64,000 nt of DNA from a virus. Taxonomy: Duplodnaviria > Caudoviricetes. Both the position numbers and the translations under genes were made by a program. Within the stretch, counting starts at the first letter, position 1. Each line of letters begins with the position of its first letter. Positions 16,360 to 63,585 of this stretch are shown in pieces. The DNA is taken from the IMG/VR virus record IMGVR_UViG_3300031994_000004. The stretch is one strand, 5' to 3'. Below the pieces are notes generated by a model, which saw nothing but the letters and a program-made list of their open reading frames with translations, searched no databases and was not told the DNA's origin.

Positions 16360-19010
16360 ATGACACTAACAAAATTCAATGAAATTGTAAATGACCTTCG
16401 CAACATCTTGGGTAAGCAGGGCTCTCTCGCTGTTACTCCAGATGGAACAGACGAAATTATTATCCATTTAAATGACGATGAAGATATGTTCGTTTGCCGT
16501 TTTATATTTAAGACTACTCTGCTTATGCGAAATGGAAATGTAGAGTTTATTGTTACATTTATTGAATCTGACTATGAACGGCAGCATTGCGAAGCATCTG
16601 AAAAGAAAATTGCAAAAATGATTGTAAAACAATTTGAACAGGAGAATTAAAAATGACTTCACAATTTTTCTATTTGCCCGCAACACAGAAGGTTGAAGAA
16701 GAAGTGCGAATCAAGTTCACACAGGAACGAATCAAGCTTGTGAAGGATTGGCTCCAGGATAAGGTTGTGAACAAGTTCACTGAAAACGATTTTGATTGCT
16801 GTTCTTATTTGCCTGATTTTGGTGCCCGCCGTAGGGTTGTTAATACCAAAATCGTGACTGACAAGGATTGTAACATTACAAAGCAGTATAAGATTGACAC
16901 AAATTATTTCACTCAGGTAACTGATGAATTTTGTGCGAACAATCGTTGTAAGATTGACAAGATGGATTTCACCTACTTGCTCATGCTCACATTTAGGGAC
17001 AATGGAATTTCTGTTAGTCCTGTGCTTGGAACTCTCGCATTTGAACTGGGGGTATAAATGAAGAAGTGGTGGAAGAATTTTATTGACTCAGACGCAAGCA
17101 CTACTGTGTTTATCGTTTTGGTGTTTGTTGTGACGTTCGCAGTTCTGTATTTCGGTATGAGTTACGGAAACGGAAATACTGAAAATGCGAATGGCGAAAA
17201 GGTCCACTATTCACATCCAATTAAAGACCGCGCTCACGGTGGTTTTGGTTATGGATTTGGCTACAGTCCACGAACTCATCGTTTCGGCTATGGATTTGGA
17301 ACTGGAACAATTAACTTTCATTAAGGAGTATAACAAATGAAACCTGTAACTTCTGCTCTCCATAATTGGATGTCTGCTCTCTTTGTTCATCCGTTATTTC
17401 GTGGCGCTTCTTTCTTTCACTGTCCTGATGGTGTTGGCAGTACTCATTACAATATGTACATTATTGGAATGACCAGTGTTCCTGACCATCGTTTCAAAGG
17501 ACAGAAGAATATTCTCAAGATTGGATGTTACAATACAAATTCAAATCACATTGAAGTACGAGTTGAAATTGAACAACCAGATGCGATTTTCCAAACTGGT
17601 GAAGATAATGTAGAGTATTATACAAATTTGAAGCTCAAGGACATCATTGAGTTTGTGAAAATTTATAAGACGAATTTTGAATCCAGTTGGAAACGTATGA
17701 TGAATCCGTTTGTTATCTATTTCGTAAAACCACAGGAAGAAGTAAAAGATTATATATCACGAAACGAGGCCGATTATCTCAATTACAAAAATATGGTAAA
17801 AACTTGTTTTGATTTTTTGAACAAACGAGAACAGTTGAATATCCGAATGAAGTCAAAGGAGAGTGATTTCTAATGAGTAAGAAGAAACAAATAACTGAAG
17901 ACGAATTCAAATTTGTTATGACAAAGCATAAGGATTTGATTCTGTACTTCACTAGCGAAGAAGAATTAAAATATGAACAAGATACTTATGGTTTTTCAAT
18001 AAACATCTGGAACGATGATTTGTATGGCGATACTTGGGTATCGCTAAAAGATGGTTTTGCGACAGTTCTAGTTTACGATGGTCATTATAACTATTACATA
18101 CCTAAAGAAGGTTTTGAAACTTGGCAAGAATTGGACAGATGGATGTCTGACGGATTTATCAAGGACCATTTGTATGATATGAATTGTGCGAGTAAAGCAC
18201 TTAAGAAACAGTATCTCGGTGATGAAGATTTTAACTATGACCCGTGGAGTAAGAAATAATGTTTAAGATAATTTTCGTTCTAGTAATCAACGCCTATCAC
18301 GGTGGAATGACAACAATAGATTTTACAACTCTTCAACAGTGCGAAACTGCTAGAGAAAAAGTCCAAGCGGCTGCAGCGAGGGGTGCCCGTATTGGTGCAG
18401 TTTGTATTGAAAAGCAAGTTCCACTGAAGAAAACAAAGTGTAAGATAATTAACGATTTCAGTTACAGAAATACAACTTATGAAACTTTAACCGGTTATCC
18501 GTATCCAGTAGCACTTGAATGTGTGGAGGAATAATGAAGAAACTGTTAAACTTTATTATCTTTGTGTACCTCTGTATGCCAATAAGAATAGTATGTTACT
18601 TTGTTTGTGCTTTTCTTGGTTGGCAAGGTTGGAATGAACCATTCTGGGGAAAACTTATTGAATGGTTAAAAGATGAATTTGAAGTTTTGTTACATCCAAT
18701 TAAAACATATAAAAGTATGAAATAAAAGGAATATAAAATGATTAAAGCAAGTGAACTCAGACAAAAGTATTTTGCCGATGACAGTTTCAATGATTCAACA
18801 TTTGAACAGTTAAAAACATTATGCGAAAAGAGTATAATTGCTGCTGCCGAAAAAGGAGAAGATAGTGTAACAATAAACATACCAACAATGTATAAAAAGC
18901 GAATTGCTGGATGGCTGGAAGATAACGAATACACAGTTTTTGGTGTTAATTCCGAATCAGATGAAATGTACATTTTTTGGTCTGAAGATTTAGTTGAGCA
19001 GATGGTTTAA
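16360..19010 (+). CDS. Early hypothetical proteins (16360-16650, 16653-17057, 17058-17324 TM with GFGY repeats, 17337-17873 DF-tail, 17873-18259, 18259-18534, 18534-18725, 18738-19010)
   Basis: Coupled + strand ORFs downstream of the promoter. Confidence 0.7.
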
Positions 19011-45806: not shown

Positions 45807-48800
45807 ATGACTAGAGAAGAATTTTTAGATACAGTCGCTAAATTTGGTTTGGGGCATAATGAATATGATGATTTCATTGAAGTCAAAATCAAAAGTCGCT
45901 ATGGTAAAGCTATTACACTAATGGAATACTGTAAGAAGTCTAAGTATTCTGCCCAGTATGCCTGGTTTTGCGAACAAGAAGGTGAAGTTACCATCTATTT
46001 TCCGCAAAGAGTTCTCAGCGTGGATGGTTACCTTGTGGAGATTGAACAGGGCGACCTTATGAAGAACGAACAACATAAACGATTTAGCAAACAAACTAAA
46101 TTGGAACGAACCCTAAAGGAAGTAATAGAACAACTCAAATCCTGGCGTCAGGAAATTAAACTAACAGAAGTGGAGTGGGATTTTTAATGTTTGAAAATTT
46201 TGAAAAATTTTTGCAAGACAAATTTAGAAATTCACCCAACAAGATGGATTTTGACGAAATGAATGCTGTCATCGCAAAATTTGGATTGACTGAGCAGAAG
46301 TTTCTGTCTGGTAAACTGTATTATCTGTATAATCGTGAAGTGGTTTATTGTCCTGAAGACCATAGAATCGGCAGAGCATACTCACTGTATCCTGATGGTG
46401 TAATTGACTTTGAAGACGAATACACCAGTATAGATAAGCTAGAAAAGTTCTTAATGAAGAAAACGAAAGAAATTAAGGACATTAAAGCAGATTTGCGAAT
46501 GATTAAGATGAAGGAAGATTTTGACGAATGTTGAGCCTTGACGAATTTGTTGCGTTGTGTAAGCAGTATTGTCCTGAGTGGGAACATTATGAAGATTGGG
46601 ATGATGGCGAATACTGGGTCAGTTTCACACATCTCAGTGATTATGCTATTTGTATGTACCAGTATACGGATAATAAAATCTTTATGCCACAAGCAATAAT
46701 TTATGAAAATGGCGAATGTGTTGCTGCCAATGATGATGGAATTCAACCAAAGACCTGGGATGAACATATTATAATAAATGTTGAAGACGCAGACGCAAAG
46801 GACAGATTTATTAAGTGTCTAATCAAATTACATCAGGACTACAAACAAATTCAACAGGACCTTAAACTAACGAAAATTAAAGAGGATTTCTAATGGAAGA
46901 ACTGATGAAGTCATTTGGTTTATTTCATGACGAAGATTATTATTGGTTTGTTACAGAAGAAGATCATGTGAGAGGCAATTTTCTTGTGATTACTTATCCT
47001 GACCGAATTATTGTACACAAAACAATACAAGTAATTGAAAACAAAATCTATTATAGTAATTTGTTTGAAGTTTTTGGATATGAAAATGCAAAAGAAACTG
47101 TTGCTCGTTTATTGCGAGAAACAAAAGAAAAGTTAACTGAAATGCGTTTGGAAAAGATACAAAGGGATTTCTAATGATTACTTGGGATGAATACAAAGAA
47201 TTGGTAACAAGATACAATTTGGAACCGAATTCTTTCAATACTGGATTTAGACCAAATGGAGAACCTGAACAACATTCACTTCCACATTTGCCAAAATATG
47301 GAAAGTACCAAGGAAAACGATGCGCAGTTTACCACGATAAATTTGGTGCCAGAGTTCGTAAAGATTTGGATTGTTGGTACACATGGTTACTAACAAAAGA
47401 AGAAATGGAAGAAGCACTAAATGAAATGTTTAAATTTTTGAAGGACGAACAAATTAAAGAAAAACTTAATGATGCAAGGAGTGATTTCGTATGAGTACAG
47501 ACCTTATTAGATATATTGGGTTAGTTATTGGAGTTCTGACATTCTTTTCAATTTGCCGTAGATTTTATCTTGATTGGCGAACTGATAAGTGGCACGAACT
47601 AACAAGTATCAGTTGGGATGAAACTTATACTACGCTTGAAAATGTTTTGCTTGCTTGGACTGATACAGAAATTGCAAGTCACATTACTGATGGTGATGTT
47701 GAATGCGGACATTTCTTTATTGAAGTAGACAAAATTAAATTTAAGATTACTCTCGGCAAACATCCTATCAAAAGTTGGAAAGAATACAGAAAGTATAAGA
47801 AAGAAAATAATACATTCTACTATCTTAATACAGTTGGAACTTTAAACACTAAATCAAAAATTATTGCCCGTTATGAAACATTGGAAGATTTTATTTCGGA
47901 ATTTCCGAAAATATCTTCTCTCTATGTAAAGCAGGGTAAGACTGAAAAAAGAATAGACAAACTAATGGAGGACTTCTAATGACTAGAAATGAAATTCTAA
48001 CTCACATTCACAACCACCCGAAGATGCATCATTTGCTGGCCAGCATTTACCAGCACGAAGATTATACTTGGGCGAAAGAAAGTGGACTAAATGCATCTGC
48101 GTGTTTGTTTATTGACAATAACGAACACAACGGTGACTTGGTTGTAACAACTGGTGCTGGAGACAGAAGTCCAGACAGTGATTTCTTGAAAACACACAAT
48201 AAGTATTACCATCCTAACGAACTTACTCCTGAAAAGATAGACCAGATCATTGCAGAAGACATTCCTGAGTTGTACAAATTAACAATGAAGGATGTTACAG
48301 ATTATCTTGAAAGTAATAAAATAAAATCTTTGAATAAGGACTTTGAATAATGGATGGGTTTTTCGTTGGAATGCTGTTTATGTTATTCGTGTTATTAGTG
48401 CTGGTAATTTTTGGTGTAATTTTTGCTGCCGCAGTCTATTTTTCAGACATTGGGACTAAGTCAAAACCACCATTTGAACCATACATAACTGAAGACGAAC
48501 AGAATGCATTTGTGGCCCGATTTAAGTCATTTGCTTTTGACGAAATGCCACAGTTTATGTATGGACTTAGAAACATACCGCCTAGAAGCATTCAAATGCA
48601 GTTTTCGCATCAGTCCAGGTGTTATATAAATGTAACGAAAGATATAAACAAAAAATGTTTTAAGTATGAAGTCAAATACAAGAAAACTGTGATAAAAACA
48701 TTTGACGATTGGGGAGAAGTCGGTGATTATTGTTGGAATTTAAATATAAGTTATAGAGATAACCCTGATTTGGTTTTAAAGACATTGGAAGTTGAAAAAC

Positions 48801-49149
48801 GAGAAGCTTTAGCAGCAGGAGATTTTGATTGAGAAAATTTAAAAACTTAGATGGAACTGTATTCCAGAACGAATATGGTTTACTTACATCAAATGCTTTT
48901 GAAGTATTAAATAATACTCTCGGCAAAGAATATGGCAGACTCAAAATTTTCGGTACAGCCGTTGATTTGGTCAGTGAAAATTTTGAAATTATAGAAGATA
49001 ACAAAAGAAAAAGTCATTACAGTTATAATCGTGACTATGTTATTGAGCATTTTAATAAGATAACAAAAATGTATTATGACCTGTTGGAATTGAGAAAGAA
49101 AATAAATTACAAAAAGAAACTTAAAAATATAAAGAACGATTTTAAATAG
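45807..49149 (+). CDS. DF-tail array 4, nine consecutive members: 45807-46187, 46187-46534, 46528-46893, 46893-47174, 47174-47494, 47491-47979, 47979-48350, 48350-48832, 48829-49149
   Basis: C-termini EVEWDF, KMKEDFDEC, KIKEDF, KIQRDF, DARSDFV, KLMEDF, SLNKDFE, LAAGDFD, NIKNDFK. Confidence 0.85.
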
Positions 49150-49152
49150 TTT

Positions 49153-49218
49153 TGTAAACATTATTTTACACATTTTTACCATAAATCCATTGACAGAAAC
49201 AGTGGATTTTTCTATATT
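49153..49218 (+). promoter_or_regulatory. Early promoter with palindromic box and terminator hairpin
   Basis: Box 49153-49170; TTGACA 49190; TATATT 49213; hairpin 49183-49209. Confidence 0.85.
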
Positions 49219-49245
49219 TTACTTGTAAAGAAAAAGAGGTTAAAT

Positions 49246-50364
49246 ATGAGCAATAAAACACGAATTTCCGAACTTGAAAAAGAAATTAAGAAGAACCAGG
49301 AACTCTATTACAACAATAAGCCGGTCATTTCCGATATGGAATTTGATGCCCTGGTTGATGAACTTTCCAAGCTTGATCCGGAAAATCCGCTGCTCACAAC
49401 TGTGGTTGGTTCTGACCACACAGAAGGTTTCAAGAAAGTTACCCACAACATTGTTATGGGTTCTCAGTCAAAAGCAAATACTGAACCGGAAATGAACGCC
49501 TGGATCCGCACTATTGACCCGTCTATGGTGCTTGGCTCCTTCAAGATGGATGGAAATTCTGTTTGCTTGACTTACAAGAATGGTAAATTGGTGCGAGCTG
49601 CGTCCCGTGGTGATGGTTACACTGGGGATGACATTACAGAAAATGTGAAGAAGATGAATTTCGTCCCGCAGAAGTTGGTGGATGATTTTACTGGTGATGT
49701 TCGTGGTGAAGTGTTGCTCTCTCGCAAAAATAAGAAGAAGTATTTCCCTGAATTTAAGAACTGCCGTAATGGTGCTAGTGGTGTTATGAAGCACCTGGAT
49801 GGTGCTGGTTGTGAACATTTGGATGTTGTTTGCTATGATGCTCAATACTATTCCAAAACTGAAGAATTTGGTACTCAGCAGAATCTCGTTTCTTTCCTTG
49901 AACGCAACGGCTTTAAGGCTGCGGAATACCGCTTTTTCAAGAATCTTACTGGTAAGGCCGCTATGGACTACCTTAAAGAAGTCTTTGACGATTTTGATAA
50001 TCTTGAATATGACATTGACGGTATCGTTTGGAAGCAGAACTCCATTGACATGAACGATATGCGAACAAACGAACGTCCGAAGACCAACATCGCCCTCAAG
50101 CCGGCTAAGGTTTTCAAAGAAACGATTTTGGAAAACATTGAATGGCAGGTCCGAAATGGAACACTCACTCCTGTTGCTGTATTGCGTCCAGTAGAACTTC
50201 AGGGAGCAACGATTAGCCGAGCATCTCTCTGTAACATCGCTTGTTTGGAACAGATGGGAATTGAAATCGGACACAAGGTAATGATTTGCCGCTGTGGTAT
50301 GATTATTCCGAAGATTATCAAGGACATTAACACTGGCAAATATGCCGAAGGTTACGAACTTTAA
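49246..50364 (+). CDS. ligA: NAD-dependent DNA ligase, N-terminal part (Ia + adenylation + OB domains)
   Basis: YYNNKPVISDMEFD, KMDG, SRGDG, VRGEV, RNGASG, DIDGIVWK, IALK, LTPVA, RASLCN, IIPKII. Confidence 0.9.
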   Translation: MSNKTRISELEKEIKKNQELYYNNKPVISDMEFDALVDELSKLDPENPLLTTVVGSDHTEGFKKVTHNIVMGSQSKANTEPEMNAWIRTIDPSMVLGSFKMDGNSVCLTYKNGKLVRAASRGDGYTGDDITENVKKMNFVPQKLVDDFTGDVRGEVLLSRKNKKKYFPEFKNCRNGASGVMKHLDGAGCEHLDVVCYDAQYYSKTEEFGTQQNLVSFLERNGFKAAEYRFFKNLTGKAAMDYLKEVFDDFDNLEYDIDGIVWKQNSIDMNDMRTNERPKTNIALKPAKVFKETILENIEWQVRNGTLTPVAVLRPVELQGATISRASLCNIACLEQMGIEIGHKVMICRCGMIIPKIIKDINTGKYAEGYEL

Positions 50365-50379
50365 TTCAGGAGAATTAAA

Positions 50380-51094
50380 ATGAATTGGTCAGATTGGCTT
50401 GACGATGTGTGGGTGGAATTTGTAAAATGCGAAGGTGGTGCAGTTACTATGGCCGACAAACCGATTTATTTTCCACCAAATGTTTACACAAATCCACAGG
50501 ATGATGATTTAGTAGGTCATCTATACGATTGGTATAATGCTGGTATGAGTTCAAAACTAGCTGCTGAACAGATGGGTTATATTGAGACTTAATTATGGGT
50601 ATTTTTAAACAACTATACAAAACATTTGTGTCTGACCCACAGAAAAAGCAGGAACTGTTAGATTGGTTAGTGGAACACGATACGCCTGAGTATCATAAGA
50701 ATCCGCTACCAGTTGGTTACGAAGCTAACAGATTGTTGTATGAAGAAATGGAATCTGTGGAAAGTTTGGAACAACAGAAGCAACAGATGCTGAATTATTA
50801 CACACGAAATAAACCTTTGGATTTGAACAAGAAGGAAGATAAGGACATTTATTTGCAAAGACGCTTGGAAAAAATCCAGGAGGATTTCTAATGTTTGTTG
50901 TTACATTTGCTGCTAAACCTGCAAAAGATTTTCCAACATTAGATGCTGCTGCCCAATTTATGACTACAGTTAGTTATGGATTTATACGCTGCACAGATCC
51001 AAATGGAGATGACTGCTCTATTGCCTTGTGCCAACTTATTGTAAAGAAACTTAAAAATAATAACAGATTAAATGATTTAAAAGAGGACTTCTAA
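50380..51094 (+). CDS. Hypothetical 50380-50592 and DF-tail proteins 50595-50891, 50891-51094
   Basis: DF members end KIQEDF and DLKEDF. Confidence 0.75.
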
Positions 51095-51615
51095 TGAAAG
51101 CAATTTACGCCGGTTCATTTAACCCACTTCACGCTGGACACATTGACATTCTTAAAAGGGCAATCAAGCTCTTTGGTGATGTTACTTTGGTATTAGCAGT
51201 TAACCCAGGAAAGACTTATATTTCGGCAGAAAGGCGTAAAGAAACTTACGAATGGCTTTTCAAAGAAATCGGACTGAATGTAAAGATTGAAATTCTCTCG
51301 GCATATAAGTTGCTCGCAGATTACTGCGATGAAAATGGTGTAACTCACATTGTTAAAGGTCTAAGGAACGGAACTGACCTTGATAGTGAAATGGCACAGG
51401 AATGGTACACGAAGGGACTTAACCCAAATGTAGAAACTGTGTATTTCACCACAAATAACACACATCGTTTTCTGTCTTCGTCCAGCATCAAGGCCTTTGC
51501 CAAAATGGATAAAGAAGGTTTCATTAACTATATGAAGAAAGTAAACAGTATTGAAGGAGCAAAAGCCACAGTTGTTGAAACATATCTTGACTGGGTGTGG
51601 AGGAATGTGCAGTGA
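51094..51615 (+). CDS. coaD: Phosphopantetheine adenylyltransferase-like nucleotidyltransferase
   Basis: YAGSFNPLHAGH (HxGH), AVNPGK, IVKGLRNGTD, ETVYF, LSSS. Confidence 0.75.
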   Translation: MKAIYAGSFNPLHAGHIDILKRAIKLFGDVTLVLAVNPGKTYISAERRKETYEWLFKEIGLNVKIEILSAYKLLADYCDENGVTHIVKGLRNGTDLDSEMAQEWYTKGLNPNVETVYFTTNNTHRFLSSSSIKAFAKMDKEGFINYMKKVNSIEGAKATVVETYLDWVWRNVQ

Positions 51616-53551
51616 ATTTAACTGATAATGTAAAAAACATAAGAGCTGATTTTGACAAAGCTCGTAAGAATATGGACTATATGGAAAAAGGACTTCAGTT
51701 CGTGGAATCATATTTTACGGACAAGAATTTTCCTGGATGGTGTTGGAGAATTTACACCCGTGGAACATTCCAAAATAGACCTTATTTTGAAATTCAAGGA
51801 AATTCTCACATTCCAAGTATGAACTGTTCACAGTACGCAACTATTTGTTTGAAATATAACTGTTGTAATAAAACTGGTGCAGTTCTAGTCATTCAAGACC
51901 TTGCTCCTGAAATGAATGCTTGGAGTTTGGACTGGGCAGATAAACAAGCATACTGTAATGAAATGGATCCGATTTTTAAATCATTTGAAGGAATGAAGTT
52001 CAAAAATCCTGATCCGTTCATTCCGCAAATTGCGAAAATTCTTACTGACATTAAGAAAAAAGAAGATGTCAATAATGGAGCACTTCAACTTAAATCACTA
52101 ATCAAACAAATTCAACTTAAAAAGGACTTCTAAATGGCACACGAAAAAATTTTTAAAACTGTGGAAGAAGCCCAGGCGTTTATTCAACCCTGGATTGACA
52201 AGGTTTCAGCTGATTTGGGCTGTGGTGTAGAACCATACAGTTACAATGATGGCTATTATATGTCTGGTGGGCAAAATGTTGGTGACTGGTTTTATGGTGC
52301 GAATTTAAAGTATCTCGGATATAATTTGGGGACTATAATGATGCAGTACCAGTATGGTTATGATAGGGACACTAAAGAATCGTGGAAATATGACCCGTAT
52401 GTTCAGTTATCATTACAAACAAAAGTAACATTTACAATGAAATCTACATTTACTAAGTCAAATATGCGACACGATATAAACATTAAACTGAATGTTAGCC
52501 GACAGATGTCTACATCAGATAAAGATTACAAGAAGTTCATTGACTGGGCAAAGCTCATTATGAAACAACTAAAGACTGCGGAAGCTAAAAAGCGAAAGTT
52601 CCAGGCCGATGTTGACTTTGAATAAGGAGCAACTATGACAAATAAAGAGAAAAAAGAAAAGGTAGAACAAATTAACGAAAAGTTCCGTTCTCTTTTGGAA
52701 CAGTATGCGGATCAACTTAGGAATACTGGACTTATTGTAGATTGGTTCCCTGATGAAGATTACCCAGATTGTTCTTCATTTTCTTGCTGTCTATCTAAAA
52801 ACGATTTGGACGAAGGCGATGAGTTTATCAGTGTTTGTTTAACTGCTCCTGAAATGGATTGGGAACATCCTGAACTATACGATCTGGATAAATACACACC
52901 AATAATTTATTTCAATCTTGAAAGTAAAATTAGTGAAATCAAAGATACTTCAATTACCAAAACTGGTATTAAAATCAAAACAAAGTATAAATTTAGCAAC
53001 AGTAAAGAATACAAAGAAAAGGATTTTAAAACTGTACTTGAATGGGCGAAATATATTGTACAGAAAGTAAAGGACCTTAAGCAACAAGAAAAGATTAACA
53101 AAATGCAGGCGGATTTCTAATGGCATCTGTTTTCAAAACAAAAGTAGCAATGCTTGACATTATCAAAAAGTTTGCCGAAGAACTTAGTCAAATTGGCTTT
53201 GTTGATGTGCATCGTTTAAATAACGATGAAGGTCGGCATACTTTCTACATTGATAATGAATTTGTTGGTGACATCTACTTTCATTATCAGAAAGAAAACA
53301 GAAGTATGCGTCGCATTGTTACAAGGTTTAATTACGAAGTTAAAATCTATCATAACATCACTTACAACGCAGATAAGGTTGAAGAAGAATATGACATTAA
53401 ACTGCGTGATATTGTATCACGATATGTAACTGAAGATACCATTGACATTTTGTATGACATTAAAAATATGCTAAAAGATGTTTACAGGAACTATAAGAAA
53501 GCTCAAAATAAAATAAAAGAATTGAAAATGAGCGGTGATTTTTCCGAATAG
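51612..53551 (+). CDS. DF-tail array 5: 51612-52133, 52134-52625, 52635-53120, 53120-53551
   Basis: C-termini QLKKDF, QADVDFE, KMQADF, KMSGDFSE. Confidence 0.8.
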
Positions 53552-53554
53552 AGG

Positions 53555-53583
53555 TTGACAAAATTATAGATTTTTACTATATT
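53555..53583 (+). promoter_or_regulatory. Sigma70-type promoter without the upstream box
   Basis: TTGACA-17-TATATT. Confidence 0.7.
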
Positions 53584-53593
53584 GTTGACCGCT

Positions 53594-54175
53594 ATGAAAA
53601 AGATAATTCTATTAACAATTCTATTATTCTCGCTCGGGTTTTCTAGTAGAACTGAGAGCAATTTCGCCGACCTTTATTACATTTCTAAGGGTTCGGAAAT
53701 CATCAAATCTGTAAACAAGAACATTACAGAAAAAGAAGCATTTCAGATTAGTACTGTTGCGTATGAAGAATCTGAAAAATACGATATAGATTTTCATTTT
53801 ACATTGGGGATAATGACAACTGAAAGTCGCTTCAATGTAAATGCGAAATCTTATTGTGGTGCAGTCGGTCTGATGCAACTAATGCCGAAAACTGCCAAAT
53901 ATATCGCAGAGAAATACGATATAGATTATAAGAACTTGTATGATATAGAATCAAACATTCAGATTGGTGTTGCGTATCTGTATCATTTGAAAAACAAGTT
54001 TGGCAGTTACGAATTAACAGCAGCTGGTTACAATGGTGGAAGTGGCGGTGCTAAAAAGTATCACGAATATATGATTGGAAAACGCAAAGCAGACGAAATC
54101 CATAATCAAACTTTAAATTACGTTCCGAAAGTAATGGGATATGTTTATGACTACCGAAAACTCACAAAAATCTAA
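53594..54175 (+). CDS. Lytic transglycosylase (SLT domain) with N-terminal signal
   Basis: TESRFN, GAVGLMQLMPKTA, NIQIGVAYL, AGYNGG; MKKIILLTILLF signal. Confidence 0.9.
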   Translation: MKKIILLTILLFSLGFSSRTESNFADLYYISKGSEIIKSVNKNITEKEAFQISTVAYEESEKYDIDFHFTLGIMTTESRFNVNAKSYCGAVGLMQLMPKTAKYIAEKYDIDYKNLYDIESNIQIGVAYLYHLKNKFGSYELTAAGYNGGSGGAKKYHEYMIGKRKADEIHNQTLNYVPKVMGYVYDYRKLTKI

Positions 54176-54419
54176 AAAATATGTTGTTACAAAACTTTTT
54201 CCACCGGATTTTAATGCGGATCCATATTCTAAATGGAAAGAAAAACAACTGTGCCGGTGCGATACATTAAAAGAATGTGCTGAGTTTATCGTGAACAATG
54301 ATGAATACTGGTATAATTGCCGATATGGTAAACAGGACCTGAAACAAGAACTTTGTGATTTGATTATAAAGCTTAAAAATCTACGAAAACGCAGTAATTC
54401 ATTGGAATCCGATTTTTAG
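54147..54419 (+). CDS. DF-tail protein
   Basis: Ends NSLESDF. Confidence 0.65.
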   Translation: MTTENSQKSKKYVVTKLFPPDFNADPYSKWKEKQLCRCDTLKECAEFIVNNDEYWYNCRYGKQDLKQELCDLIIKLKNLRKRSNSLESDF

Positions 54420-54483
54420 TAAACAAAATTTTACATATTTATCCACAAAAACCATTGACAAGGTCGGTGGTTTTTTCTATATT
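54418..54483 (+). promoter_or_regulatory. Early promoter with palindromic box and terminator hairpin
   Basis: Box 54418-54435; TTGACA 54455; TATATT 54478; hairpin 54447-54475. Confidence 0.85.
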
Positions 54484-54513
54484 AAACTTAAACAATTAAC
54501 AAAGAGGTACAAA

Positions 54514-55856
54514 ATGTCAACTTTCCTGTTCGTTATGCTAATTCTAGAGGCAATTTTCACTGTGTATGCGATTGTTGCTGCTATGTTATCTGATGAAAAG
54601 GACGCTGCTACTAAATTCGTTGGTAGCATTATCCGACTGGTGTTGGTAATCGTGGCCTGCGTATTTGGTGGAGCTTGGGCAACTGTTATTGGCATCATTT
54701 ATGGTGCTGTTGGTAATGGACTTGGTTTTCTGTATAATGCAGCAAAGAAGAACGAAATCAAAACTATGGTTTGTTTGGTGTTTATGATTTTATTCATTGT
54801 GGCACTCGCAAACAACTAATAACAAATTAACAAAGAGAGGTAAAATATGTCACAGTATTCACACGATGAACAGATGGAATTTCTTTATGAATTTGCGAAG
54901 AACTATCAGCACTATGTTCCTGACGCAAAGGACAATATGAGGGCTAGTGATTGTTTGAAGAAGCCCAACACTCTCCGAGCTGCTCAGGCTCAGTTGAAGT
55001 TGATTCGTGACCGTTCCAAGTTCTATCGCAGGCTGAAGGCATTTCTCCAGCACGGCATTAAGATTTACTCATTTGAAGGAACTCAGTGGGAAGAATTGGA
55101 AAGTGACGAATTGCGTCAGTGGCTCAAGTTGGCGGTAGATGTCTATGCGGGTTCTAATGCTCAGTCTGTTAAGGACCAAGAAATCACGAAGCTCGCCGGT
55201 GCGATTACGATGTAAATTTAAGGAAACAAATGCTCAATCTAAAAGAATACATTGACGGCATTAGGCCGTTATTGAATGTCCCGTTTGACTATACACCAAA
55301 CTGCTATTATGGCGGTTCTTACGATATGAGAGTTAGGTTCCAGATACAAATGGCTCAACTACCTAAATCGTTTGACTTCGCACGTACTGTTATCCACCCG
55401 GACAGTTTTCTTTTTGATTGTTCGTTCACATTAACCGAACATGAAACGGACCCTAGCCACGTTTCCTGTCAAATACTGTATTGGTTTTTGCGTGATTATC
55501 TGATTGGTACTCAGTATCAGTTCCTAGATTTAATGGAACGAATGGAAGAAAACAAATTTTTACCAGATAATCAAAAGAAATTCCTGGATAGAAATATGTT
55601 TATCCAACAGAAGTCCGAAGTTTTCCCATTGACTGAGATTGTAACTAAATTTAAACAATATCTGGAGATTTTGAGAAAGCAGTATTACGGAATTTTACAT
55701 ATTGCTGAAGACCCAATTTATAAGCAGTATTACAAAGAAATTACGGCTTTGGAAAATAAAATTGACGAAATCAACAAACAGAAACGAGAACTGATAGATA
55801 AAATGAGTAAACAAATCCAAAAGGACATTAAAATCTATAAAGAATTTGAGATGTAA
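54514..55856 (+). CDS. Multi-TM small membrane protein 54514-54819; hypotheticals 54847-55215 and 55230-55856 (coiled-coil tail ending KEFEM)
   Basis: SD sequences; hydrophobicity pattern. Confidence 0.7.
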
Positions 55857-55917
55857 AATTCTTTTTACAATTATTTCCTAAATCGTCATTGACAATGTGA
55901 CGATTTTTTGCTATATT
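55852..55917 (+). promoter_or_regulatory. Early promoter with palindromic box and terminator hairpin
   Basis: Box 55852-55869; TTGACA 55889; TATATT 55912; hairpin 55880-55906. Confidence 0.85.
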
Positions 55918-55947
55918 TAACTTGTAAATTAAAAATGAGGTATCTTT

Positions 55948-56787
55948 ATGAACGCAATTAAAACTCTCGCCAAACTTCATAATTGGAATGTTCCGACTGT
56001 TTGCCCGATTTGTGGTAGTGAATTGGAACTGTCCGAAAATCATTGTCAGCTCAAATGTGTAAATGATTTCTGTCAGAGCAAGACTGCCGGTCGCATTAAC
56101 AAATGGACTGGGATTTTGGATGTGAAGGAATTTGGTTTGAGAACGATTAACCTGCTCATTGACAACGGTATTGTTGATTCAATTTCGTCCCTCTACAAAA
56201 TGGACCTGAACAAGATTGCGAAAATTGAAGGAATGGGTAAGCGCTCAGCAGAGAAAATGAAGAAGGAATTGGATGCCCATAAGGAAATGACATTGGCGAA
56301 GTTTATCGCTGGTTACAACATTGAAGGTGTTGGTGAGAAGTTCATTGAGAACATTATCAGTTCCAAGAAGTTCAAGAATTTTAATGATTTCTTCGCTTAT
56401 TCTAAATCTCCGACCCGCTTTACTTGCGACGGTGTGGGTGATGTGATTAGCACGAAGTTGGCGGAAGGTTTGAAGGCCCTGAAGAGTGATATGGAAAAGA
56501 CACTCCAGTTCGTAACGATTAAGAACGCAGCTCCGAAGAAGGTGGTTGCTGGTGGTTCGTTGGGAGGTAAATCTTTCTGTTTCACCGGTGCTGCTAGTAT
56601 GCCGCGAAAGAAGCTCTGGGAACTGGTTGAAAAGAATGGTGGTGTGGTTCACGAAGGCATCAAGAAGGACACTGACTTCTTGGTTCTCGCAGATGTGAAT
56701 AGCACATCGGGTAAGGCCAAAGCGGCTCGTAAGCAGGGCATTACTCTCCTGAGCGAAGCAGATTTTATCAAAATGTGCGTAGTGTAA
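55948..56787 (+). CDS. ligA: NAD-dependent DNA ligase, C-terminal part (Zn finger + HhH + BRCT)
   Basis: PTVCPICGS...CVNDFC Zn finger; HhH motifs IEGMGKRSA, IEGVG, DGVG; BRCT FCFTG...NGG...KKDTDFLV...K..A...GI. Confidence 0.9.
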   Translation: MNAIKTLAKLHNWNVPTVCPICGSELELSENHCQLKCVNDFCQSKTAGRINKWTGILDVKEFGLRTINLLIDNGIVDSISSLYKMDLNKIAKIEGMGKRSAEKMKKELDAHKEMTLAKFIAGYNIEGVGEKFIENIISSKKFKNFNDFFAYSKSPTRFTCDGVGDVISTKLAEGLKALKSDMEKTLQFVTIKNAAPKKVVAGGSLGGKSFCFTGAASMPRKKLWELVEKNGGVVHEGIKKDTDFLVLADVNSTSGKAKAARKQGITLLSEADFIKMCVV

Positions 56788-59700
56788 ATGGTTGATTTTG
56801 CTTTTTTCACTAGCCAGGCGGAAATATTAAATCTAAATTGTTTGCTTACTGGTGATTGCTATTACATTGGAACAGCTAAACCTGAAACAGAATTGATGCG
56901 ATATAATCTTTATGACAAATCTGTAACAGTATGGCCGAGAGTGTATTATAGTGACCTAATGAAAGAAATTAGAACTGAACATGAGAGTGTTGAAGTTAAT
57001 ACGAATGAAGGACTTGAAGAACTATGTGGTATAATTCAGATGAATTTAAAGAACGTCAAAATGAAACGTCGTTTGTCTAAAATGAATGAGGATTTTTAAT
57101 GTTTAAGAAAACAGAAATTGTAAATTTTCAACTGGAAGATGCAGTTCCTGAAACTTCATATCTTCATTCCAAATACTGGACGAAGTATGGTGGGAATTAT
57201 CGTTTGCAGTTGACTGCTCACAATTTTTTAGAAGCGTGTTTTAAAACTCAGACAGAATTTGAAATTGAACAACCAGGTTTTTGTGACCTGTGCGATGAAA
57301 AAGATACAATTTGGGTTAATTTCTACCAATATGTTGAAATAAACGGGTATGAATTTAAAATTCCTGCACCAGTGCTGGATTGGGGAATTCGTCCAAGTCC
57401 ATCTGGTTTAATTACCGAGAATTATTTTAATGTGTTCAATGTAGATAAGCCAAAAAAAGAACGAATTTATGAATATGTTGATTACTATAAGAAGCACAAA
57501 AATCCGCTTCCGTATGGAACTGATTATCACGATTACTGCACAAAAGAAGTACGAACAAACCAAATTTGGATTGAAGATTTAAGTGATTTTGATAAAATAA
57601 TTGAAGTAGTTCGCCCGTATGCCAAACAACAGAAAGAAGAACTTTTCAAATATGCTTCTATGTTTAATGTATTGGAAGAAACACAATATACAGAAAAGAT
57701 GGAAGCATACAAAAAGCAAATCGCAGATTTGAACAAAATGAGAAATGATTTTACTGATAAGACAGTAGATTCCATTTTAAAACAAATTAACTTACAAGGA
57801 GATTTTTAATATGTTTACGCCGGAACAAGTAGCACAAGTACAGAAAGCAAACGAATTTATCAAATCTAATCTACCACAGGTAAAGACAGTTCATCCGACC
57901 TTTGAAAAGAAGCGTTTAGTTTGTCTAATCAAAATGAAGGATTTGGATTGTGAAGTTGCTGAACGAGTGAAAAAAGAAATCCATAAAGACCGGACATTTC
58001 TTTATGTAAAATTCTTGAAGGACTTCAGCATTGAATGTTCTTACAACAAGATTGATTTTGCGAAACTACCAAAGTCAGAACCTTGTGGCAGTTATTTTGT
58101 GACTGACAGTATGTTAAATGTAACTGAAATTGAAGATGAAGAAACTGATGTGGCTACTCTGAAGAAGGGTTTCAACGCAGTTATTCAGCAACTTAATGCT
58201 ATTGACCAGATCATCAATTCTCCTGATTTGGTTCATTTTAAAACTGAAATTGACAATACCTATGAAGAAGAACGCAAACTCAAAGCACAGCTCAAAGCTC
58301 TTGACGAAAAGAGAACACTTCTTTATAGAAAGAAAAAGGATTGTTACAAGAAAATTATCAGTATGGCAGAGGATTTTTAATGACTTTTGATTCTCTAAAA
58401 CAGGAATGTGATGAGATAAATGTTACCTTTAATGGTAAACTTCTATTCTATCACAAGGAAATTGTTGGAAGATACTATCACAATGATGACAATGAACTTG
58501 TATGTGATGTTATTTCTATTGGTTCACCATACCCAGCTGAAGGACTTAACAATGAAAACGAAATAATGAATTGTCTTGTTAAAGCCATAAAGTATTTTAA
58601 GAAACTAGAAAATGAAAAAAGATTAAGAAGGATAGAAAATGATTTTTAAGGTGTTTGAGAAATTTGGGATTGACCTACAACAGCATTGTTCAGGTGACTT
58701 TGGTGATTTTAAAACATACGATTTAAATCTGGGTGATTTTGATTCACTGAAATATGCTGAAAACATAGACTGGGGCTGTATGAAAGTTATTTACAATAAA
58801 GGTACATATTCCATTATGGGGTATCTGCCGACCATTAACTTTAATGGCATAAAGACAATGCTCATAACTTACACGAATACAAATGTGCTTCGCTACGGCC
58901 AAAATGTTAGGACAGTTAAAATCATTGAAGATAAACAAATTACTGAAAAGAATTTTGACCGCGTTGTTGCCAATGTTAAACATTTCCTGGATAAGTTTGA
59001 CGAACAAGAAATAAAAATTCAACAGTTCTTAGGTACATTAAATCTGGACGATTTTAGGGAGACAGTTGTAACATTGACAAATGAAATAAAAGAAAAAATG
59101 ACTGCGCTTGATGAATACAAAGAAAAATTTTACAAGAATGTTAAATCACAACTTTCTGTAACGAAGGATTTTGAATGACGAGTGAACAAGAACCATCAAT
59201 GTTACCAGAATACAAGAAAGTATTAGATGCATTTGGTTTGAAACACGTTGGTGATGGATGTTATAGCTGGAATGGGCACTGGCTAGTGTCTTACTATGGT
59301 GATAAAGATTTCAGTATGTGGGCAGTTATGCAGGGTATTAGAAAGGAATGGATTAAAAATGACCCGTTTATTTCATTGGGTGGTTGTGAATGTATGAGTC
59401 CTGAAGAACTGGAAGAACGAATTAGTGGCATAATAAAAAAGTACAACCAAGTTAAAGAAGAAATTAAACTGGAAAATTTACAGAAGGATTTCAAATGAGA
59501 AAGGACATTAAAGCCTTTTTAGAACAAAATAACTTTGTTTACGAAAACAGAGATTTCACTGAATATGTTCCAGGGAATTCATACTACAACTCACTAGGTT
59601 GCTGGGTTTCGGAATACCATCAGATATTTTACAGACAGTATAAGTATTTCCAAGTTATGTTGTTTGTGGCACCGCATTTTGATAAGCGTTTTCCACCACA

Positions 59701-61239: not shown

Positions 61240-62649
61240 ATGGCAAAGAACACAAAGAACACAAAGAAGACCACGAAGAAGACTGTTAAGACCACCGCAA
61301 AGAAGGCAGAAACCACAAAGAAGGTTCCACATCTTAAGGTTCACGATGGCGCTGACTTTTTCGCTCACAAGCACATCATCAATTTCTTAACTGAAACTGA
61401 CCTCTACAAATTCACCCAGCAGCAGTTCTATCTCCACGTTCGTCCGAATGACCGAGCAAAGTGGGAATTTAAGTGCCGCACTAAGGGTGTAAATCTCGCT
61501 CCGCTCTGTAAGCGAATTAACGAGGAATTGGATTGGTTGTGTACTTTGAAGTTCCAACAGTTTGAATTGGACTGGTTTAAGAAGCAGAATTATTTTGCTC
61601 ACGATTATGTTGAATTTTTGGAAGATTTCCAACTGAAGCGTCGCCACATCAAGTGCTATACTGACAAGAAGAATACTACTTTGTTCGTAGAAGCAGAAGG
61701 TTCTCAGAAGAATGTTTCTCCGTTTGAAATTTATGTTCTCCACATCATCCAGGCACTTTGGATGGCAGATGAAGAACTTGATTGGGATAGGGCAAAGACA
61801 AATCTTGACAACGAAATTGCCAAGGTGAACGCAGCAACCAGAGCTGGCATCAAGTTCACGATTTCCGATTTTTCTGTTCGCCGCACTATTTCTAGCGAAT
61901 GGGAAGATTACATGGTCGGTCGTATGCTTGCTATGTGCCCGGCATTTGTTGGAACTAGCAACGTCTATCTCGCCATCAAGCACAACTGCACGGCTATTGG
62001 CACCTTCGCTCACGAATTGGATGCCACCTATCAGGGCCTTTCGGATGTGACGATTGCGAATGCTCAGAAACAGAAGCTCACTGATTGGGCAAATGAATAT
62101 GACGGCAAGTTGGGCATCGCTCTCTCTGACAACTATGGTTTCAAGAGTTTCTTGAATGACTTTGGACTGAAGTTTGCGAAGCTCTTTGATGGTTGCCGTC
62201 ACGATAGCGGCGACCCGATTCGTTGGGGTGAAATGCTGATTGCTCACTATAAGAAGTTGGGCATTGACCCGACCACGAAGGTTGCTTGCTGGTCTGACTC
62301 GCTTGACATTGACAAGGCTCTCGCCATCGCAAAGCACTTCAATGGTCGCATCAAGATTGCGTTCGGCATCGGTACGTATCTCGGCGCAACTGTCTGTGGC
62401 ACAAAGAAGAATCCACTCTCTATGGTTATGAAGGTTGTGGAAGTGAATGGCAAGCCAGCTACTAAACTTAGCGACAGTAAGGGTAAAACTCTCTGTCAGG
62501 ACGAAGCATATAATGAATATGTGCGTAAGGTCCATAACTATAAATCTATTGATGACATGACAGTTGAAGAAATTACAGCAATGTTGCCTGATTTTAAGAA
62601 TGTTCTTTTAACTGATGTTTACAATGGAAATAATATAAATAATGTATAA
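61240..62649 (+). CDS. pncB: Nicotinate phosphoribosyltransferase with a Lys/Thr-rich N-terminal extension
   Basis: TDLYKFTQQQ, DF..RR, GTSNV, GTFAHE, RHDSGDP, SDSLD, FGIGT, KLSDS.GK. Confidence 0.9.
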   Translation: MAKNTKNTKKTTKKTVKTTAKKAETTKKVPHLKVHDGADFFAHKHIINFLTETDLYKFTQQQFYLHVRPNDRAKWEFKCRTKGVNLAPLCKRINEELDWLCTLKFQQFELDWFKKQNYFAHDYVEFLEDFQLKRRHIKCYTDKKNTTLFVEAEGSQKNVSPFEIYVLHIIQALWMADEELDWDRAKTNLDNEIAKVNAATRAGIKFTISDFSVRRTISSEWEDYMVGRMLAMCPAFVGTSNVYLAIKHNCTAIGTFAHELDATYQGLSDVTIANAQKQKLTDWANEYDGKLGIALSDNYGFKSFLNDFGLKFAKLFDGCRHDSGDPIRWGEMLIAHYKKLGIDPTTKVACWSDSLDIDKALAIAKHFNGRIKIAFGIGTYLGATVCGTKKNPLSMVMKVVEVNGKPATKLSDSKGKTLCQDEAYNEYVRKVHNYKSIDDMTVEEITAMLPDFKNVLLTDVYNGNNINNV

Positions 62650-62760: not shown

Positions 62761-63585
62761 ATGAAATTTTACATTTACAAAATAATAAACAAATTAAATG
62801 GTAAATGTTATGTAGGTAAACATAAAACATTTGATGGTGAAACTTTTCGTGCTTATATGGGAAGTGGTATTGCTCTTGTTGAAGCACAAAGAAAATACGG
62901 AATTTCTAATTTTGATAAAGAAATTATTGAAGAAATTGAAGATGATGAAAATGAACTTATTGTTAATGAACGTGAAAGATTTTGGATAAAAGAACTTAAT
63001 ACAATTTCACCTAATGGATATAATATAGCTTATTGTGGTGAAGGTGGTTGTTATCACGTATCGGAAGAAACAAAAAAGAAAATTTCAAAGTCAAGTTCAG
63101 GTAAGCCAAAAAGTAAAGAACATATTAAAAATATGCGAATCGCAGAATTTACAAAACAATATACTTTTGAATATGAAAATGGTAATGTAGAAGTTAAAAA
63201 TATAATTTTATGTGATTACTGTGAAGAAAATAAATTTGATTTAAATGAAATAAAATACTTATCATCTTTTGGCTATTATTATCATGGATTTCGTATAAAA
63301 GAATTTTATAATAAAAATGAATTTTTGAGAAAAATAGATAGAACTTGTAAATGTTTTAAAAACCCAATAACAAATGAATATGTATCATATTGGACTTTAA
63401 ACCAGTTAAAATTTCGTTATCATAAACCGGAATTAGAAAATGTAGAAATAATGGATTTATTGGATAAAACAAAGATGAAAATAAATCCTTGTAGATGGTG
63501 GAATAATGGAATTGAAGAACATTTCTGTATGAATAAACCAGATGAAACTTATAAGCCAGGAAGAATTCCATTTAAAAAACATTGA
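62761..63585 (+). mobile_element. Free-standing GIY-YIG homing endonuclease (Seg-like) with a NUMOD3-type repeat
   Basis: YIYKIINKLNGKCYVG, YMGSG, E..WI, PNGYN, HVSEETKKKISK..GKPKSKEH. Confidence 0.85.

Follow-up and report, generated by a model that had tools for sequence, protein, structure and literature searches.

The only detectable DNA ligase of an uncultured jumbo phage is encoded by two conserved genes 5.6 kb apart

We analysed a stretch of 64,000 nucleotides, hereafter the window, from the IMG/VR virus record IMGVR_UViG_3300031994_000004 (Duplodnaviria; Caudoviricetes). The only detectable DNA ligase of this uncultured jumbo phage is encoded by two conserved genes 5.6 kb apart, here called the N-half and the C-half (Table 1). 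The two genes very probably encode two subunits of one DNA ligase dependent on nicotinamide adenine dinucleotide (NAD+), most likely a heterodimer. The N-half and the C-half were each found once in the 210-kb record, and no ATP-dependent ligase domain was detected in this record, which is about 56% complete according to CheckV. Among deposited phage genomes, megablast with positions 49000-57000 gave no match and the tblastn matches were all below 60% identity; therefore, no cultured relative is available among the genomes searched.

An earlier note on this DNA had described two open reading frames (ORFs) sharing the domains of a LigA protein, and both the ORFs and their domain content were confirmed with Pfam and NCBIfam. 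The N-half matched PF22745 (Nlig-Ia; weak, at 21 bits against a cut-off of 27 bits), PF01653 (adenylation) and PF03120 (OB), and the C-half matched PF03119 (Zn finger; weak), HhH and BRCT. On the 652 positions of the NCBIfam model TIGR00575 (LigA), the N-half and the C-half covered positions 1-380 and 386-652 with scores of 296.3 and 149.0 bits, respectively. Each score alone was below the equivalog cut-off of 444.45 bits, and the two summed to 445.3 bits. The LigA modules are thus divided between two genes whose domains complement each other exactly, and do not stand on one polypeptide that reaches the cut-off. When aligned to E. coli LigA, the match of the N-half ended at residue 390 and that of the C-half began at residue 404. 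Because the coverage of the LigA model passes from one half to the other between positions 380 and 386, sequence comparison places the break at the hinge between the OB domain and the Zn finger, in line with the domain boundary named in the earlier note. The N-half terminates 13 residues past the IIPKII motif and the C-half begins 18 residues ahead of the CPICG Zn knuckle; the extra residues at the break number about 10 and 14.

The motifs, which the earlier note had called intact, were invariant in alignments of 20 relatives for each half. The invariant catalytic residues of the N-half were K100, D102, G103, R121, G122, R153-G154-E155, R174, D258-G259, K263 and K285. K100-M-D-G, R153-G-E, D258-G...K263 and K285 aligned to E. 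coli K115, E173, K290 and K314, respectively; the adenylation lysine in KxDG and nucleotidyltransferase (NTase) motifs III, IV and V were therefore all present. In domain Ia, Y21, Y22, D30 and D34 were invariant. Compared with the E. coli residues that bind nicotinamide mononucleotide (NMN), namely Y22, H23, D32, Y35 and D36, the N-half has Y21, Y22 (in place of H), D30, F33 (in place of Y) and D34. In the C-half, the Zn cysteines C19, C22, C37 and C42 and the BRCT core were invariant, and the C4 Zn finger, HhH and BRCT were all present in a fold that matches LigA chains. The C-half model superposed on E. coli LigA (2owo) with a template-modelling score (TMq) of 0.56 and a root-mean-square deviation of 3.0 over 188 columns. 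Catalytic and Zn residues stayed invariant down to about 45-50% identity. The N-terminal head of the C-half, with the consensus ..LAKxHNWNLPT, was kept down to about 50% identity; L7, W13, P16 and T17 were invariant and H11 and N14 nearly so. The tail of the N-half also carried a conserved motif, KD.NTGKYA.GYE.

The earlier note had advised looking for the same split in related phages, and it was found in seven related contigs from other assemblies, namely the IMG/VR contigs L004 and L005 and the ENA assemblies L008, L012, L015, L016 and L017 (264-429 kb). The N-half lay upstream of the C-half on one strand in all of them, so that both halves co-occurred in like order and strand in 8 of 8 loci including the window. 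The gaps in the relatives were 0.39, 1.1, 1.9, 2.8, 4.6, 6.9 and 7.45 kb long, with 1-16 ORFs inside. The pairwise identities of the N-half and the C-half were correlated (r=0.81, 28 pairs). The ratio of nonsynonymous to synonymous substitution rates (dN/dS) was 0.09-0.21 for the N-half and 0.11-0.17 for the C-half, with dS above 1 and hence saturated; these ratios indicate that both halves are under purifying selection of similar strength. Stand-alone N-halves numbered 344 at E<=1e-40, and 119 of the best 120 listed were 356-411 aa long. Stand-alone C-halves numbered 308, mostly of about 270-280 aa. Many of these stand-alone halves were located on contigs of 260-435 kb. An exception in length was P0349 (598 aa), in which a 71%-identical ligase Ia and adenylation part was joined to a PF07733 (DNA polymerase III alpha) domain; this may be either a fusion or an artefact of chimeric gene calling.

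Each half was the first gene behind a TTGACA-N17-TATATT promoter set in a hairpin with a T-run, and a GAGGT Shine-Dalgarno sequence was located 7-8 nt ahead of the ATG in both halves. These are the separate promoters that the earlier note had seen. Exact copies of TTGACA-N17-TATATT occurred 15 times in the window, all on the + strand, compared with 2.0 expected by chance. Two further promoters of this class were located within the ligase gap, at 53555 and 54455, and a promoter of matching type stood directly ahead of the C-half in 7 of 8 loci. Each half thus opens a transcription unit of its own under a common promoter class, and production of the two would therefore be expected at the same stage of infection; we infer that the two halves are co-expressed.

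Some features of expression signals in the window were observed beyond the ligase genes. The 15 promoters span 4114-63610 (for example 49183-49218, 54447-54483 and 55880-55917), and in about 8 of them the -35 hexamer was placed inside a stable hairpin (-9.9 to -17.3 kcal/mol) with a T-run in the spacer. This arrangement of hairpin, T-run and promoter looks like a combined terminator-promoter cassette. Between 44253 and 60082, many small genes end in ..(E/K/Q)DF with a stop codon overlapping the next ATG (for example 50888-50893, 51091-51096 and 57096-57101). Because the closing codons GAG GAT TTC TAA TG double as the GGAG/AGGA ribosome-binding site of the next gene, these gene ends appear to be constrained at least partly by translational coupling.

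A complex of both halves was modelled, as the earlier note had suggested. The model scored 0.63 (runs of 0.63, 0.63 and 0.67), while the best control scored 0.02; it passed a mark that 58 of 80 solved complexes attained, as did 2 of 110 mismatched pairs. The runs had 56% or more of their contacts in common, and the predicted local distance difference test (pLDDT) of the partner was at least 79. The confident predicted interface joined residues 297-309 and 330-342 of the OB domain in the N-half to residues 7, 11-16, 19-37 and 42-48 of the C-half. It coincided with the invariant N-half columns W300, N304, G305, P309, N330 and E340-G342 and with the invariant or nearly invariant C-half columns L7, H11, W13, N14, P16, T17, C19, P20, H32 and C37. 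The monomer model showed residues 3-11 of the C-half as a helix (mean pLDDT 84.8). The modelled contacts suggest that this head helix may serve as a docking element standing in for the lost covalent link.

In single-chain LigA, adenylylation falls to Ia and NTase; the nicked duplex is gripped by a clamp of OB, NTase and HhH, and OB and HhH are kept in position by the Zn finger (PMC5052709). The split thus parts the chemistry from the clamping of DNA, and the two polypeptides must come together again. On this basis, the N-half (Ia-NTase-OB) would bind NAD+, adenylylate its own Lys100 and carry the nick-sealing chemistry, and the C-half (Zn finger-HhH-BRCT) would provide the DNA-binding part that closes the protein clamp round the nicked duplex. 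The two would associate non-covalently, as the model predicts, with the OB domain of the N-half contacting the Zn finger and the clade-specific helix at the N-terminus of the C-half. Association would restore the single-chain LigA architecture and an active ligase, like the solved heterodimer of the T5-like phage PR1.

The heterodimeric ligase, one of two readings offered in the earlier note, is favoured by the 8 of 8 co-occurrence, the correlated divergence, the similar selection, the kept residues, the shared promoter class and the complex model; the bases observed for it are gene structure, domain content, conservation, co-occurrence, selection and promoter motifs. Several points weigh against it. 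Since the record is incomplete, a further ligase could sit in the unseen part of the genome. The complex model was built on author-made alignments, and its pass may come from solved structures of single-chain LigA, with their OB-Zn contact, that the predictor had already learned; it therefore points to resemblance rather than to binding. The conserved N-half tail lies outside the confident predicted interface. In the distant 301-kb relative L010 (9195-10822), the C-half follows an ADP-ribosylglycohydrolase gene and no N-half was found within 10 kb of it, so that strict co-occurrence is unproven there; the distance between the L010 halves may be greater still, or this relative may have lost its N-half.

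The other reading of the earlier note was that the halves have acquired separate roles. The N-half would then be a minimal ligase or adenylyltransferase that acts alone or with another partner, and the C-half would be a free DNA-binding or BRCT scaffold. The separate transcription units 5.6 kb apart and the L010 C-half would fit such a divergence, and BRCT and HhH modules do act as independent scaffolds in other proteins. However, the halves co-occurred in all informative loci and diverged in step, the residues of the predicted interface between OB and the Zn finger with its head were invariant in both families, and the Zn finger and HhH were retained in ligase-specific form. Nothing in the evidence supports separate roles as such, and we consider them unlikely.

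A decaying ligase, in which fission was followed by drift and the LigA of the host does the work, would be consistent with the finding that neither half alone reaches the equivalog cut-off. The low dN/dS (with saturated dS), the invariance of catalytic and Zn residues at about 45-50% identity and the hundreds of intact stand-alone copies all speak against decay, which is very improbable. Restoration of a single polypeptide by an intron, trans-splicing, a split intein or ribosomal bypass is more improbable still. The 12-13 intervening genes are served by promoters of their own, and the content of the gap varies among relatives. A search of 48800-57200 against Rfam at E<=0.1 matched no family, intron or other, and the extra termini are too short for intein halves; joining of the halves by an intron or intein was ruled out on these two grounds, which agrees with the absence of such signatures in the earlier note. 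CGGN recoding within the ligase was ruled out as well, since neither half contains an in-frame CGG codon. An assembly artefact or chimera is hardly credible: the record is a metagenomic contig, but the split recurs, with order and strand unchanged, in seven contigs that come from different samples and assemblers, and the misassembly that the earlier note had named as a risk is excluded by these independent assemblies.

A two-subunit NAD+-dependent ligase is an already known and solved kind, because T5 ligA and ligB have long been annotated as the two parts of an NAD ligase, the PDB entry 9hu3 is solved and the break lies at the same hinge. The two split NAD ligases, annotated and solved, make the present finding less surprising than first thought. 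Hundreds of T5-like genomes annotate a ligase "subunit A" and "subunit B". PDB entries 9hu3 and 9i5i (released 2026-01-14) hold the heterodimeric ligase of phage PR1 on nicked DNA, and the 9hu3 chains matched T5 LigA (E=8e-104) and T5 LigB (E=4e-80). Literature searches turned up no publication on 9hu3 or on NAD ligases that are split or heterodimeric, and a 2020 ligase review is silent on them. PHROGs contains half-length families; the window halves scored higher against the full-length PHROG than against the split PHROGs.

T5 LigA/LigB (AAU05253/AAU05254) is cut at the same hinge as the ligase of the window, which corresponds to about residue 390 / 402 of E. coli LigA, and likewise exists as two intact genes in one genome. 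In both phages the subunits are phage-encoded, the gene for the N-subunit is upstream on one strand, and one or more promoters stand directly before the gene for the C-subunit. However, the T5 genes are 200 bp apart with none between, whereas 5,583 bp and 12-13 genes separate those of the window and 0.39-7.45 kb those of its relatives. The identity between the N-half and T5 LigA was only about 27%. T5 LigB begins about 6 residues ahead of the Zn knuckle, whereas the C-half of the window clade has an extra conserved helix, which is without counterpart in T5 LigB or in the single-chain relative P0122. The window ligase thus differs from the T5 type in its separate large clade of about 260-435 kb phages. 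It also differs in its separate transcription units, its fast-changing gap and the clade-specific head helix predicted to dock on OB.

The single-chain bacterial enzymes (E. coli 2owo, T. filiformis 1dgs) have the same six modules, order, catalytic motifs and C4 Zn finger; they are one polypeptide, whereas the ligase of the window is two. The N-half and the C-half showed 49% and 32% identity, respectively, to the nearest single-chain relative, P0122 (627 aa, on a 5.7-kb contig). In this single chain the junction from OB to the Zn finger is very short, and the tail and head peptides have no counterpart.

To place the split among NAD+-dependent ligases, a tree of 153 rows was built with FastTree from the 150 best representatives of an exhaustive search, leaving out three N-terminally truncated rows (P0128, P0190 and P0230). 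Among the representatives were both full-length proteins and half-length ones whose sequence stops immediately after ..IIPKI... The window was located in a starred clade that comprised nine split forms and P0122 as its one full-length form, and T5 LigA was located elsewhere. The split or full-length label changed 21 times on this tree, with at least 13 changes forced by starred branches. A 49-row subset, our own choice picked after the first tree, recovered the same clade with IQ-TREE (96, starred). Forcing T5 LigA into the window clade cost 21.6 log-likelihood units (approximately unbiased test, p=0.04), a weak result because the T5 branch is very long and the group was named post hoc. The split of the window clade is therefore probably independent of that of T5, which the trees favour and do not prove. 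Two other half-length proteins were paired tightly with full-length sisters: P0161, with a C-half gene 452 bp downstream, and P0138, with one 227-aa gene before a downstream C-half gene. Because both have C-half genes close downstream, fission at the OB/Zn hinge, or re-fusion, is recurrent.

About a dozen genes were said in the earlier note to intervene between the halves, and 12-13 ORFs on the + strand were counted. Ten gap ORFs gave no Pfam or PHROG match. The other three were searched with Pfam only, which returned a CoaD-like protein, an SLT protein and no match for a 101-aa membrane ORF. The 122-aa gene was the sole gap gene common to the window, L004, L005 and L012, and a weak DUF5039 match was recorded for L012 and L017; some of the remaining gap genes were common to two or three loci. 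The CoaD-like gene recurred in four gaps, a CTP_transf_like gene was also present in the gaps of L012, L016 and L017, and the SLT gene was found in the L016 gap too. The gap of the close relative L017 contained a gene for a sigma-70-like factor (17183-18001; Sigma70_r2 and r4), which the gap of the window lacks. Phosphopantetheine adenylyltransferase (PPAT) is an unusual gene for a phage. Two relatives equally near the window (82% in the N-half) had gaps of 1.9 and 7.45 kb, which indicates that the gap content turns over fast. The stretch between the halves may be a tolerated slot where small early genes come and go. The idea of a homing endonuclease was dropped, as no endonuclease domain was found in the gap ORFs (ten by Pfam and PHROG, three by Pfam). 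Recycling of ligase-released NMN by the gap nucleotidyltransferase was dropped as well, since CoaD/PPAT scored above its cut-off and the NMNAT/NadD models were only weakly matched.

Table 1. Features of the split ligase locus in the window.
Feature	Position	Strand	Description
Hairpin-promoter cassette before N-half	49183..49218	+	Stem-loop around -35 TTGACA, T-run, -10 TATATT; hairpin -9.9 kcal/mol
Ligase N-half	49246..50364	+	372 aa; domain Ia, NTase (adenylation) and OB, then a short tail (KDINTGKYAEGYEL)
Inter-half gap	50380..55856	+	5,583 bp; 12-13 small genes on the + strand, with two further promoters of this class; content differs among relatives
CoaD/PPAT-like nucleotidyltransferase	51094..51615	+	TIGR01510, 120 bits against a cut-off of 103.3
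SLT lytic transglycosylase	53582..54175	+	Hydrophobic N-terminus; own promoter in front
122-aa gap gene	54847..55215	+	Common to window, L004, L005 and L012 (55-78% identity)
Hairpin-promoter cassette before C-half	55880..55917	+	Architecture as at N-half; hairpin -10.7 kcal/mol
Ligase C-half	55948..56787	+	279 aa; N-terminal helix (residues 3-11), C4 Zn finger, HhH and BRCT

Genes related to NAD+ were observed near the ligase. A PncB-type nicotinate phosphoribosyltransferase (61240-62649), above the NCBIfam cut-offs, was encoded 4.5 kb downstream of the C-half, and relatives add NUDIX and CTP_transf_like+NUDIX (NadM-like) genes (L012, 13324-18368). This group looks like a module for NAD+ supply beside the NAD-dependent ligase. 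Just past the phosphoribosyltransferase gene, a GIY-YIG domain protein of 274 aa (62761-63585) is probably a homing endonuclease.

The view of how NAD ligases work is unchanged, because the T5-like heterodimer has already been solved. What the window adds is that a replication enzyme usually treated as an obligate single chain is divided over two genes, each transcribed separately, throughout a large clade of uncultured phages of about 260-435 kb, and that fission appears to have occurred at the same hinge more than once. A broader proposal, which we put forward tentatively and regard as doubtful, is that the OB/Zn hinge is a recurrent fission point that, once cut, becomes a permissive slot for gene gain and loss. 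A newly evolved docking helix would compensate for loss of the link and make the clamp subunit a separately regulated, possibly exchangeable module. The spacings of 0.39 to 7.45 kb form a natural graded series for studying the drift of split genes, and the candidate docking helix may be reusable in engineered split ligases.

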